Of a DNA stretch of 64,000 nt, positions 2,793 through 56,980 are shown piece by piece. A model generated the notes under the pieces. The model ran no database searches, was not told the DNA's origin, and saw only the letters and a list, made by a program, of their open reading frames with translations. The stretch spans positions 32,001 to 96,000 of IMG/VR virus record IMGVR_UViG_3300045684_000050; one strand, given 5' to 3'. A program made the position numbers and the translations under genes. Source of the stretch: a virus. Each line of letters opens with the position of its first letter. Position 1 is the first letter of the stretch.

Positions 2793-4307
2793 TTAGATAT
2801 TTTTAACACTTACAGATATATGCTCTCCCAATACAGCATAATGTGCTGCCTTCATCGCATCTACTACACATTGAGTTGCTACTTCATCCAGATCTACTGT
2901 CAATATCTCATCATGCCTTAAACACTTAATAGCATTTAAGGGGAAAGTCCGATCCTTCCCTAAATTAATAACCGCTAACTTTAAAATAACTGAAGCTGTC
3001 CGCTGTACATTGAGACCTATTACTTTCCTGGACAAAATCTTATGCTTATCCATCGCTTCCATAATAACACCCCTCTCCTCTGTATCTCTTTCATGCTTAG
3101 GTATCTTCCAGAAATTATTAGCTTTAGATCTTATTCTTTGATAACCGTCTAACAATTCATCTTTCATGTATTGACCAAGATATCTGCATGTCCAATAATA
3201 ACCCTCTTTGATAGCTACATTGATAAGCTCATTTCTATTCTTAGTAAACTCACAAAGATCATCGATATTTTTATATAAATTATATAGAGACAATGGACTT
3301 ACTTTTATTTTAAATGCTAAACCATCGATTCCCATTCCATTCATCATAGATAATACAGTAATCTTCATCTTATCTCGTTTCGCCTTATGCTTCTCATTCA
3401 TCTCCCCGGGTTGATACTTAACCTTAGACACATAACAATACAAAAATTCATAAAAATCACTATATTCTGACTCTCTAAACACATAAAATATTGGGGGCTT
3501 GAAAATATGCATGTAAATCATTATCTCCTGACTTACATAATCAAAAGACATTATGTTACCATCATAATAGTCAGAACTTAAAGCCTGAATATTAGGTGCA
3601 TAAGTATGAACCCTTCCAGTAATCGAACTATAAGGTTTATGATTAATAGGAATATAGTCACCTATATATGGCTGTATCATTATCCTGTCTGATCGCAACA
3701 AAGAGAATAAAACATATTTGTCAATAGCTTCATCCTTAAATGATCTCAAATTATTAAAAGATAAATCTTCCTGGCCGCTATCAATATCGAAGTAGTTATA
3801 CTTCTTCTTATCAAGATACTTTGTTAATGAAGTCTTTGAAGGAAATGGATTTTTTAACTCTACCATTTTCTTCTCCAACTCAACATACTTCTTTTTTATT
3901 AATTCAGTATTTACAGGAAACTCATGAGCATTTATCCTGTTAAGATAAGAGTGAAATAATGACTCCATATTAATTACCGTCTCAAGCTTCATCGATTTTA
4001 TTATCTTAATCTGTTTATAAAAAACTTCATAAATATGTTTTGGATAGTTTTCCGGCTTATATTTAGGACCAATAGTCTTGTGTAAATATTTCTGAAATAA
4101 AGACCTTAATGTATTACTTTTATGGTAAAATATCACTTTCTCTAATGTCTGTATATCAAGTATTCTAGCATTTACAACCAACTGACAATCATAGCCTATA
4201 ACTGACTTTACACCTTCAGGAATAAATAATTTTTCATCTTTATAGCTATTAGTGCCATCATAATAATAGTACTTAGACTCGAAATAATATATTGCTATTG
4301 AAACCAC
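2793..4307 (-). CDS. polA: Divergent family A DNA polymerase
   Basis: TGRVHTYAPNIQAL, motif A FDYVSQE, motif B R..MK...L...NG, QRTASVILK, motif C RHDEI; GTG start. Confidence 0.88.
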   Translation of the reverse strand: MVSIAIYYFESKYYYYDGTNSYKDEKLFIPEGVKSVIGYDCQLVVNARILDIQTLEKVIFYHKSNTLRSLFQKYLHKTIGPKYKPENYPKHIYEVFYKQIKIIKSMKLETVINMESLFHSYLNRINAHEFPVNTELIKKKYVELEKKMVELKNPFPSKTSLTKYLDKKKYNYFDIDSGQEDLSFNNLRSFKDEAIDKYVLFSLLRSDRIMIQPYIGDYIPINHKPYSSITGRVHTYAPNIQALSSDYYDGNIMSFDYVSQEIMIYMHIFKPPIFYVFRESEYSDFYEFLYCYVSKVKYQPGEMNEKHKAKRDKMKITVLSMMNGMGIDGLAFKIKVSPLSLYNLYKNIDDLCEFTKNRNELINVAIKEGYYWTCRYLGQYMKDELLDGYQRIRSKANNFWKIPKHERDTEERGVIMEAMDKHKILSRKVIGLNVQRTASVILKLAVINLGKDRTFPLNAIKCLRHDEILTVDLDEVATQCVVDAMKAAHYAVLGEHISVSVKNI

Positions 4308-4319
4308 GTATATAAAAAG

Positions 4320-4351
4320 TTTGTAATATCAAAATTATTTAACTATTTTTG
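4320..4351 (+). promoter_or_regulatory. Full Bacteroidota sigma70 promoter (-33 TTTG, 20-nt spacer, -7 TATTTTTG)
   Basis: TTTG at 4320-4323 and TAnnTTTG at 4344-4351 with canonical spacing, in an intergenic gap. Confidence 0.65.
4330..4337 (-). promoter_or_regulatory. -7 element (TAATTTTG) upstream of the polymerase gene
   Basis: TAnnTTTG match 23 nt upstream of the start at 4307; no -33 element. Confidence 0.4.
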
Positions 4352-4355
4352 AACC

Positions 4356-4421
4356 AGTTTATAACACAAGGACACTGCCAAATTCCTGGAGGTCTATGAT
4401 TAAGTTCGTAGACCTTTTTTT
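4356..4421 (+). ncRNA. Candidate ~65-nt small RNA on the otherwise gene-free strand
   Basis: Bounded by a plus-strand promoter and a plus-strand U-tailed hairpin; no protein-length ORF. Confidence 0.45.
4391..4421 (+). terminator. Intrinsic terminator oriented on the plus strand
   Basis: GGTCTATGA-TTAAGT-TCGTAGACC (9-bp stem with one G-U) followed by 7 T. Confidence 0.7.
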
Positions 4422-4439
4422 AGATAACTTTTTGTGCTT

Positions 4440-4748
4440 TTATACTGCTCCATCCCTTAGCTGTTTAGATATAACATCATTGATTAATATCCTGGCTTGT
4501 TCTTTTATGTAATTTGGCTTATTCCAACCAGTACTCCCAGTTAACTCACGATACACAAGTCTCTCTATTTCTTTTTTCATTATTGACTCAGTATTTTCAG
4601 TGTTAATGTTTTTTATTCGATCAGACAATGCTTCCATCACAAGCCCTCTAATTTCTTTCCTAGCTATGGACATTATTTGCCCTTTTATCATGTCCTTGAT
4701 ATAGTCCCTTAGCTCTTTATCTTCTTTGATGTTTAATGTTAATTTCAT
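4440..4748 (-). CDS. Hypothetical helical protein
   Basis: 102-aa ORF in the replication cluster. Confidence 0.75.
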   Translation of the reverse strand: MKLTLNIKEDKELRDYIKDMIKGQIMSIARKEIRGLVMEALSDRIKNINTENTESIMKKEIERLVYRELTGSTGWNKPNYIKEQARILINDVISKQLRDGAV

Positions 4749-4762
4749 AATCCTTTTTTTTG

Positions 4763-5686
4763 TTAGATAACTTTTCTTATTGCATCGTTTATGTAGAATT
4801 GGGTGTCAGTCTTTATGATGATATCTGAAGGATCTTTTGCTATGTCACAATGGATAACTTTATCTGTCTTTAGCAACCTGGAGACTACAGTATTATAAAC
4901 CCATCCTGCCGAATCATTATCCCCCCACACTAACCTTATTGGAAATCGTTCTATTAGCTCTGGTGCCATCTTCTCTAATAAGCTGAACATTCCTTCACCT
5001 GAAGTACAGAACGCTTTATACTCATAAGAACAAGCTTCCACACTTACAATATCCTTCATACTTGTAACTGCTATTAGAATATTCCCATTTCTAGGAAGTG
5101 TATCATAGCCTTCTAACTGCCTCATATTTTCATGCCAGAACTTATGAGGTCGATCACCATAAAAATTAAAAGGAGCATAGCCTTTCTTTCCTCCACCTGC
5201 AGGCCAAAAGAAACCAAAATTATCAACACTTGATGTGAAATAGTTTTTAGATAATTTATTAACACTTACTAGTCCTTGGTATTTGTGCCTGTGAAGTAAT
5301 TCCCGAGGAACAAATAAAGACTTAAAATAGTCATAGTGCTCTAACTGTAAAGGCTTCGTTTTAAATGTCAAGGGAATAGAAACATTAGACATTCTCTGCA
5401 TATAACTCCTGGAGTTACTTATCTGTCCATAATTACCGGACTTTATAACTTCCAATGCTTCTTCCCTTGAGCTAACGCCTATCTCCATTTCTGCTACAAA
5501 TCCTATCACATCACTGCCAAAATTTCCTGCATAGCCAAAATCCTTCCAGTATATCCTCTGATTATACATCTTGGTTGAAAAAGAAGGATTATCATCAGAC
5601 CTTCCAGGCAGTGGAGACTTTATTTTCTTACCAATCTGATAATGACTCCCTATATAATGACGATATATAGAAAGCTCGTCAAACAT
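4763..5686 (-). CDS. dnaG: DnaG-like (Toprim) primase, crAss-like type
   Basis: N-terminal SPLPGRSDDNPSF..WKDFG..G.DVI.FV (CHC2-like without Cys), Toprim KDIV and WGDNDSAG, C-terminal KDPSD. Confidence 0.8.
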   Translation of the reverse strand: MFDELSIYRHYIGSHYQIGKKIKSPLPGRSDDNPSFSTKMYNQRIYWKDFGYAGNFGSDVIGFVAEMEIGVSSREEALEVIKSGNYGQISNSRSYMQRMSNVSIPLTFKTKPLQLEHYDYFKSLFVPRELLHRHKYQGLVSVNKLSKNYFTSSVDNFGFFWPAGGGKKGYAPFNFYGDRPHKFWHENMRQLEGYDTLPRNGNILIAVTSMKDIVSVEACSYEYKAFCTSGEGMFSLLEKMAPELIERFPIRLVWGDNDSAGWVYNTVVSRLLKTDKVIHCDIAKDPSDIIIKTDTQFYINDAIRKVI

Positions 5687-55312: not shown

Positions 55313-55358
55313 TTGTCTTTTTGTTCAATAGAATAAATGAACTCAAAGACACTGCCTA

Positions 55359-56189
55359 TTATAAATAACAGGAATTTACAGACTTCATTATACTGTACAA
55401 TTCCTTACAATTATTAGTCAAAGGTAACTGTTTTTTCTGATATATACACAAAATACAGTTCTGATTTTTCTTATCCAAACCAAATGTTATACCGCAAGAT
55501 AATGACTTCTTTATGATGTCATAAGAAAGTCCGCATTCTACTAACTTTACATATATTTCAAATGAAATAGGAGTGCATTTTTTGTCTAGCTTAACAATTT
55601 CGTATTGATATTTACATTCTTTTATATTAGCTTTTACACTATATTCTACAAAACATTCTGCAATATCCTGAACTACTTCATAAACTACCATACATTCTGT
55701 TTCAGGCTTCATTGCTATCTCATAAATAAATTTACACTCATCTCGCTTTATTGAATCAATATAAACTTCTATCTTATTACATACTTGATAAAGAGCTTTT
55801 TCCCATGTTTCATAAGCGATACATCCAGGATTTTTTAATAACCACTGATCTTGTTTACTTCGGTCCACTTCTTGCTTTGACACTGCATCTTGCTTCCCGA
55901 TAAGTTTAACAATATTTTCTCTTAGCCTAGAAAAATATTCTAAGCAAATACACTTTCCATTATATAATATTTGATTCTTCATATCCACAAGGATACTTTT
56001 GAACCTTCTTAATTTACGAATATTGTCAAAATTTGCTTTTGGATATCCATAACTATAAAATGATGCAAAATCACCACTAACCCCTATTATATACGCATCC
56101 ATATCTGCCAATAAAAAATTGATGTCATCTATTGATGGTATCAAGCATTCATCTGGACAATGATCACATGTTAGCACTTTCCTACGCAC
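55359..56189 (-). CDS. Cys-rich structural protein (tail hub-like position)
   Basis: 276-aa ORF, CDHCPDEC start; synteny. Confidence 0.55.
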   Translation of the reverse strand: MRRKVLTCDHCPDECLIPSIDDINFLLADMDAYIIGVSGDFASFYSYGYPKANFDNIRKLRRFKSILVDMKNQILYNGKCICLEYFSRLRENIVKLIGKQDAVSKQEVDRSKQDQWLLKNPGCIAYETWEKALYQVCNKIEVYIDSIKRDECKFIYEIAMKPETECMVVYEVVQDIAECFVEYSVKANIKECKYQYEIVKLDKKCTPISFEIYVKLVECGLSYDIIKKSLSCGITFGLDKKNQNCILCIYQKKQLPLTNNCKELYSIMKSVNSCYL

Positions 56190-56952: not shown

Positions 56953-56980
56953 AGTGAGGTAGCTTTTAGACTACCTCACT
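56953..56980. terminator. Perfect 10-bp stem hairpin after the auxiliary capsid-like gene
   Basis: AGTGAGGTAG-CTTTTAGA-CTACCTCACT; weak U-tracts on both sides. Confidence 0.6.

Follow-up and report, generated by a model that had tools for sequence, protein, structure and literature searches.

The DNA considered here is a stretch of 64,000 nucleotides, hereafter 'the window', which corresponds to bases 32001-96000 of a 116,794-bp phage genome of 34% GC. Positions given below are those of the window unless they are described as genome positions. Genes of this phage are found on the plus strand from approximately 103.5 kb, across the contig ends, to 11 kb, and on the minus strand from approximately 11.4 to 103.5 kb, interrupted only at 16.6-18.3 kb, where a small island of plus-strand genes is found. 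A preliminary description of this DNA held that all credible genes of the window are minus-strand genes, and indeed, leaving aside ORFs nested within longer ones of the minus strand, every ORF of at least 90 aa is found on that strand. The genome possesses a 4289-aa gene, its leaders are A-rich and without Shine-Dalgarno motifs, and boxes of the form TAnnTTTG are present, features which fit with this being a crAss-like phage of marine Bacteroidota. The missing Shine-Dalgarno motifs, that is, are as would be expected given a Bacteroidota host.

Elsewhere in the genome, the block of small plus-strand genes displays a common upstream motif around AATTATAGTTATCTTTA (genome 228-263, 3202-3227, 6919-6926, and 114360-114367), the -7 box of which ends in A rather than in G and often is located within a small inverted repeat. 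To judge by those sequences, this motif looks like a distinct, possibly early, class of promoter. At both contig ends (genome 1-186 and 116552-116794) there are, in addition, tandem repeats of a 32-bp unit that starts with ATATATTCATAGATGACTGAATATG, which may be terminal repeats or instead may be a repeat array that has been split by an assembly break.

The gap under study, 4308-4439, is 132 nt in length and is found between a minus-strand ORF of 102 aa and the gene for a PolA-like DNA polymerase, with a primase-like gene preceding that ORF (Table 1). The GC content of the stretch in which the gap is found, 27%, is the lowest of the first 12 kb. Naming the flanking genes primase and polA, as was done in the preliminary description, turns out to be roughly right, both as based on their PHROG matches and as certain homologues of the polymerase carry Pfam DNA_pol_A; the 102-aa ORF has no family match, with PHROG searched. 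Remote homologues of the polymerase (28-32% identity) align with it from residue 4, and its first in-frame ATG is found only at residue 106, i.e., inside of the homologous part, so that the GTG at 4307 likely is where the polymerase starts. As the polymerase ORF is in the same frame as the ORF of 102 aa, the two were considered as a candidate for a split or recoded gene. Four stops are located between them, however, three TAA and one TGA, and four stops of two kinds imply neither readthrough nor an alternative code. Recoding is ruled out, that is, and the gap is truly non-coding.

Table 1. Features in and around the gap between the 102-aa ORF and the polymerase gene (window positions).
Feature	Positions	Strand	Remarks
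PolA-like DNA polymerase gene	2793..4307	minus	504 aa, GTG start; phrog_17 match 1e-9
-33 element TTTG	4320..4323	plus	read directly; 20-nt spacer to the -7 box
24-bp near-palindrome, 10/12 positions	4329..4352	both	two back-to-back -7 boxes, 6 bp apart
-7 box TAATTTTG, predicted polymerase-gene promoter	4330..4337	minus	22 nt before GTG start 4307
-7 element TATTTTTG	4344..4351	plus	matches Bacteroidota consensus TAnnTTTG
Predicted non-coding RNA, ~66 nt	4356..4421	plus	start predicted ~5 nt past the -7 box, end predicted within the T run
Mostly unpaired 5' part, possible pairing region	4356..4387	plus	unpaired probability mostly 0.8-1.0
Terminator stem-loop	4388..4417	plus	12 bp including 3 G-U, 6-nt loop
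U tract of terminator, 7 T	4415..4421	plus	begins with the final base of the stem
102-aa ORF	4440..4748	minus	last gene before the gap; stop at 4440-4442
Primase-like gene	4763..5686	minus	307 aa; phrog_12622 match 1.9e-13

On the plus strand, i.e., facing against the surrounding genes, this gap holds what resembles a complete host-type promoter. With B. fragilis the promoter consensus consists of a TTTG (-33) some 19-21 nt upstream of a -7 element. The consensus of that -7 element in Bacteroidota is TAnnTTTG (PMC7366714). The preliminary description identified just such a Bacteroidota sigma70 consensus, i.e., a plus-strand -33 TTTG, 20 nt, and then a -7 box, and all three parts are present, with the -7 box, TATTTTTG, fitting TAnnTTTG and with the -33 TTTG found at the 20-nt spacing. 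It is the sole full -33/-7 match in any intergenic gap of the window. The promoter motif by itself is present at a level which is that of chance, however, with four full matches in the window vs. 2.47 expected and with 25 of 100 shuffles reaching four, and approximately half of those four are located where a promoter would be unexpected. In an intergenic-like sequence as long as this gap (132 nt), a full -33/-7 match to one given strand has a probability of p = 0.003, and the -7 box alone p = 0.11, p-values which are somewhat optimistic as the site was picked after the whole of the window had been read.

Many genes of this phage are preceded by TAnnTTTG or TATCTTTR boxes in the sense orientation, and it would appear from these boxes that the phage relies upon promoters of the host type. 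The -33 TTTG is missing from most of these promoters, and TATTTTTG is not of the phage's commonest -7 type, which is TATCTTTR or TATATTTG. Among intergenic -7 boxes within the minus block, 10 are sense vs. six that are antisense, so that a -7 box alone predicts little. We infer that the chance of the plus-strand promoter being active is somewhat better than even. Four further antisense-facing TAnnTTTG boxes are seen in intergenic gaps, on the plus strand, at genome positions 19226, 20781, 21628, and 22815. A full -33/-7 match is also found on the minus strand at 55419-55452, in the 3' end of a 276-aa gene and approximately 106 nt before the start of a 1912-aa gene, and a leader transcribed from there would hold a non-significant 13-bp match to the candidate RNA considered below (55339-55357).

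Following the end of the plus-strand -7 box (4351) by 36 nt, and in the same orientation, is a hairpin with a T run. This had been described as a 9-bp hairpin having a 7-T tail on the plus side, which is what is present, though the 9-bp core (4390-4398 with 4407-4415, including one G-U) extends to a stem of 12 bp (4388-4399 with 4406-4417). As plus-strand RNA the hairpin folds at -16.2 kcal/mol (z = -4.3 vs. shuffles), and as minus-strand RNA at -9.7 kcal/mol, that is, the plus strand is favored by 6.5 kcal/mol. The minus-strand fold is the weaker because three G-U pairs turn into C-A mismatches, and the 14 nt past the stem on the minus strand, CCAGGAATTTGGCA, contain no U tract. A stable, GC-containing stem-loop which leads directly into a U tract on the strand that is transcribed is what characterizes an intrinsic terminator, and this hairpin is a predicted plus-strand terminator in that sense.

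Stems of at least 9 bp which are joined to a T run number 10 in the genome vs. 0.53 +/- 0.67 in randomized genomes matched to it in dinucleotide content, such that a hairpin of this strength very likely has been selected. The other strong terminators that were placed are each found behind a gene of their own strand, with that at 4388-4421 the only one without a gene ahead of it, and it is also the only strong plus-strand terminator inside of the minus block of approximately 19-103 kb. The other terminators that were compared fold better on the sense strand, by 2-5 kcal/mol, owing to their G-U pairs, and it can be argued from the strand asymmetry of the present hairpin that any RNA made here has the sequence of the plus strand. 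We are thus quite confident that this terminator has been selected for function on the plus strand. A strong terminator which has been so selected implies plus-strand transcription that reaches it, for which the only plausible nearby source is the promoter at 4320-4351. As no plus-strand gene is found ahead of the terminator, the sole candidate for the unit being terminated is the predicted 66-nt RNA. It may be suggested as well that, since a hairpin with seven T's is costlier to keep than an unwanted promoter is to lose, the phage has a use for either the promoter or what is made from it.

Just one more strong hairpin is found in the minus block, at 56953-56980. It has a 10-bp stem, folds at -15 to -17 kcal/mol whichever strand is considered, and lacks a clear sense-strand U tract. 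This hairpin is located 10 nt past the stop of a 525-aa gene, itself without a PHROG match, and it may be an mRNA stabilizer or attenuator.

Transcription from promoter to terminator would result in an RNA of approximately 66 nt, which as a whole folds at -18.2 kcal/mol (z = -3.3). What the preliminary description saw as about 35 nt of single-stranded-looking sequence is found to be approximately 32 nt (4356-4387), with an unpaired probability of at least 0.8 at most positions and one weak 4-bp helix. No ORF is present inside of 4356-4421. The only plus-strand ORF nearby is hydrophobic and 38 aa long (4396-4512), begins in the stem, and crosses the T tract. It is judged to be spurious, as it is antisense to a Lys/Glu-rich ORF and such an ORF is itself a source of Phe/Leu-rich frames. 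Features of type I toxin-antitoxin systems, in which an antisense RNA opposes the translatable mRNA of a small hydrophobic peptide, were looked for also, with this same ORF the only peptide candidate. A search of Rfam provided no match within the window at the gathering score and, given an E-value limit of 10, the best match for the plus-strand unit had E = 6.9.

A plus-strand RNA of approximately 65 nt, as was originally proposed, thus stands as a reasonable prediction in terms of its non-random anatomy and strand asymmetry, but the seed-type trans role that was proposed with it is unsupported, as is considered further below. The combination of a promoter, an ORF-less stretch, and a terminator is unlikely, so far as can be told from sequence, to be accidental, and a terminator together with an ORF-less unit are the sequence-level characteristics of high-confidence intergenic sRNAs (PMC7366714). 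The predicted end of the RNA is found 18 nt short of the stop of the 102-aa ORF (4440-4442). The RNA would overlap with neither a coding region nor the polymerase start site, and what it would cover is only untranslated readthrough RNA. Its being antisense to readthrough from the primase operon into polA, as had been claimed, follows from this geometry, but any such claim should be limited to that untranslated junction.

A second ORF-less unit consisting of a promoter-like box and then a terminator is found at genome 12024-12117, on the minus strand and between two minus-strand genes. Its -7 box, TATCTTTG (12117-12110), is followed after approximately 50 nt by a 12-bp hairpin and T run (12057-12024), the unit folds at -20 kcal/mol (z = -3.2), and it has no Rfam match. 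This unit could be a sense-strand sRNA or instead a leader attenuator of the next gene.

The gap possesses as well a -7 box on the minus strand, TAATTTTG, that was missed by the preliminary description. The 22-nt distance from this box to the start codon resembles what is seen with four other genes (genome 16427, 18671, 32193, and 95041), the -7 boxes of which precede their start codons by 20-21 nt, and the polymerase gene therefore probably has a promoter of its own. With such a promoter the polymerase gene would have no need of readthrough, and the plus-strand unit would be that promoter's divergent partner. The two -7 boxes, back to back, make up a near-palindrome that is unique in the genome; as it occurs only once, its being a repeated operator is ruled out. 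Transcript starts would be located at approximately 4324 (leftward) and 4356 (rightward), and with these approximately 32 bp apart the footprints of the two polymerases would overlap. Read along the minus strand, the gap consists of a stop, a hairpin, a promoter, and a start, and read along the plus strand it consists of a promoter, 32 nt, and a terminator. The gap can be viewed, that is, as holding a putative back-to-back promoter pair. A further inverted repeat, 4209-4223 with 4382-4396 (13/15 positions), is ascribed to chance, with an equal score found in 5 of 60 random windows.

No close relative of this phage is present in any of the collections searched. Blastn and tblastn against phages provided nothing for the region or for the polymerase, and with the phage's helicase the identity found there was at most 41%. 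Viral contigs contained no match to the polymerase, helicase, or primase proteins, nor to the DNA of the hairpin, and a word-indexed search of 5.8 billion proteins returned the query itself only. Exhaustive searching with HMMER resulted in 18 relatives of the polymerase at 23-32% identity, the alignment of which is too divergent to seed a search for the locus. The genomic contexts of three remote polymerase homologues were examined, and none has a comparable upstream layout: with one there is no gap, with one there is overlap with an integrase gene, and with the third, a crAss-like contig, there is a gap of 135 nt with a sense-facing structure. In the latter gap (3866-4000 of that metagenome contig) there is a sense-facing, long-loop stem plus T run, a layout differing from that of the window, and on the same contig the polymerase homologue is preceded by a giant gene that matches Pfam crAss_MUZ weakly. 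Scanning metagenomes for the pattern of the stem gave seven hits, all of them unrelated hairpins on contigs of 48-63% GC.

As the best explanation of this locus we suggest, tentatively and as falling a little short of an even chance, that the plus-strand unit specifies a short, self-terminated, divergent non-coding RNA of approximately 66 nt which acts locally, at the junction. The minus-strand promoter (-7 box 4337-4330) would drive the polymerase gene leftward. The host-type, full-consensus promoter at 4320-4351 would start a rightward transcript near 4356, and the intrinsic terminator (4388-4421) would end that transcript after approximately 66 nt, i.e., before it could run head-on into the primase operon. 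There are two ways in which it might act there. With promoter competition, RNA polymerase bound in one direction would exclude that bound in the other, and the plus-strand promoter would serve to tune or instead to time initiation at the polymerase gene. With antisense pairing, the RNA would be perfectly complementary to any primase-operon transcript that continues into the polymerase gene, and pairing could mark the junction for double-strand-specific cleavage, such as is seen with lambda OOP on cII. A regulatory role of any sort, either for the RNA or for the act of transcribing it, is possible but, in our view, somewhat doubtful. A stronger version of this argument is one that we consider to be unlikely. 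This is that the locus is a two-way switch built upon the 24-bp near-palindrome, with host RNA polymerase making either polymerase mRNA or the 66-nt antisense, self-terminated RNA and thereby controlling the hand-over from primase to polymerase.

From a different perspective, the RNA may be simply waste. The polymerase promoter, that is, being near-symmetrical and AT-rich, might fire in both directions, with the terminator present only to prevent collision with the primase operon. Pseudo-symmetrical promoters of bacteria commonly fire in divergent directions (PMC12825309, PMC10268837), the two -7 boxes in this case form a near-palindrome, and no significant target for the RNA was found. To be rid of an unwanted promoter, however, a single base change would be enough, at less cost than the keeping of a 12-bp hairpin plus T7, and it is the plus-strand promoter which is the fuller consensus of the two, having a -33 TTTG. 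We thus give to the waste explanation a low though not trivial probability. The preliminary description viewed the RNA instead as a trans-acting sRNA, the unpaired 5' part of which would pair imperfectly with host or phage mRNAs and thereby alter their translation or stability. Its layout of promoter, unpaired stretch, and terminator is that of Bacteroides intergenic sRNAs, and comparison of the 5' part with the phage's own translation-start regions identified a 13-bp pairing (nine Watson-Crick plus four more, one G-U) with the leader of the 1912-aa gene, at approximately 55339-55357. The -25.1 kcal/mol of that best pairing is nonetheless no more than what shuffled seeds can produce (-20.7 +/- 2.4, with -31.4 the best shuffle), so that a trans role goes unsupported. 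The two exact 12-mers found are also the number expected by chance, and nothing conserved points to a seed; the trans-acting explanation seems to us to be rather improbable.

The hairpin could belong, alternatively, to the minus strand, as a 3' stabilizer, processing site, or weak terminator of primase-operon mRNA, with the plus-strand promoter then due to chance. Stop (4440), hairpin, -7 box (4337-4330), and start (4307) do indeed follow the usual order of a terminator and then a promoter, and the hairpin at 56953-56980 likewise follows a gene without having a clear U tract. This is difficult to reconcile, however, with three G-U pairs becoming C-A mismatches such that the fold falls to -9.7 kcal/mol, with the 14 nt of CCAGGAATTTGGCA past the stem being without a U tract, with other compared terminators folding better on their sense strands, or with the p = 0.003 of the full promoter match, and it is viewed here as quite unlikely. 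Similarly held to be of little probability is that the unit is a relic, whether of a lost plus-strand gene or of a swap of the polymerase module, or that it acts as DNA, i.e., as an origin or primer-RNA site between primase and polymerase. Polymerase modules are exchanged among crAss-like phages, the gap falls where GC content is at its lowest within the first 12 kb (27%), and lambda's OOP RNA was once held to be a primer, with the OOP promoter affecting replication. Cumulative GC skew, however, is without an inflection at the locus, which also is without iterons or repeats, and these results tell against a replication origin there. A canonical terminator releases its RNA and so is a poor fit to an R-loop primer, and what would be a relic has a hairpin and T run which are intact, including their plus-strand G-U signature.

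The local, divergent RNA that we favor can be compared with a number of known systems. Described bidirectional promoters have a symmetrical -10 hexamer and starts which are approximately 18 bp apart, unlike the two asymmetric, back-to-back -7 boxes and starts of approximately 32 bp apart that are predicted here. What is shared with bacterial bidirectional promoters is opposed core elements in one polymerase footprint, binding to which is mutually exclusive (PMC12825309, PMC10268837). Lambda OOP RNA is 77 nt long, is transcribed from promoter pO, is antisense to the 3' end of cII, and causes decay of cII mRNA that is dependent on RNase III. Like OOP, the candidate RNA would be short and self-terminated, would have its own promoter, and would be directed against surrounding genes in a replication region of a phage. 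Unlike OOP, which overlaps the 3' end of a coding sequence, the candidate RNA would cover only an untranslated junction. The two in addition have no sequence relation and differ in promoter type and host phylum, and the candidate RNA is a prediction. With phage P22, the intercistronic region of arc and ant gives rise to a small antisense RNA, sar, which shares with the candidate RNA a promoter which is found within an intercistronic gap of an operon and which opposes that operon, with the product in the present case also expected to pair with readthrough mRNA. The ant ribosome-binding site is covered by sar, however, and the candidate RNA would begin 49 nt ahead of the start codon of the polymerase, thus leaving the start uncovered. 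Without overlap of a coding region or start site, the candidate RNA is not of the OOP/sar class in a strict sense.

High-confidence sRNAs of Bacteroides have their own start site, read coverage, a 3' intrinsic terminator, and no ORF, and 76% of Bacteroides intergenic sRNA candidates carry the type of promoter that is seen here (PMC7366714). The candidate RNA resembles these intergenic sRNAs, and also DonS-type divergent antisense RNAs, in its promoter consensus, intrinsic terminator, low GC, unfolded 5' region, and divergent position beside the promoter of a gene (PMC7366714). It differs in being phage-borne and predicted, the Bacteroides RNAs being chromosomal and validated by dRNA-seq and Northern blots, and at approximately 66 nt it is shorter than DonS, which is 78-128 nt (PMC7366714). 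In the crAss-like phage phi14:2 it is host polymerase that transcribes middle and late genes, and intergenic non-coding RNAs are abundant. The intergenic RNAs of phi14:2 g004-g006 resemble the candidate RNA in that they, too, are non-coding and come from a crAss-like marine phage, one of Flavobacteriia, but those RNAs are long, are early, are found in the early region, and no homology of them to the candidate was found. Of the five strong terminator loci of phi14:2, which is cultured, four are sense-facing and one reads on both strands, i.e., none of the five faces only against the gene block.

No small regulatory RNA was found in the literature to have been reported for crAss-like phages, the regulation of which is poorly known. 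The unit described here nevertheless is of a known kind, a well-formed prediction within an orphan genome, and as such should come as no surprise to the specialist. Were the two-way switch to be true, then it would be the first case described in Crassvirales of a regulatory small RNA and also of a bidirectional -7-box promoter. If confirmed, the locus would provide a model for how promoters of the Bacteroidota type, with their asymmetric -7 box, behave in a back-to-back arrangement, and a model as well for how antisense transcription is handled by a strictly lytic phage having approximately 90 kb of one-way transcription.
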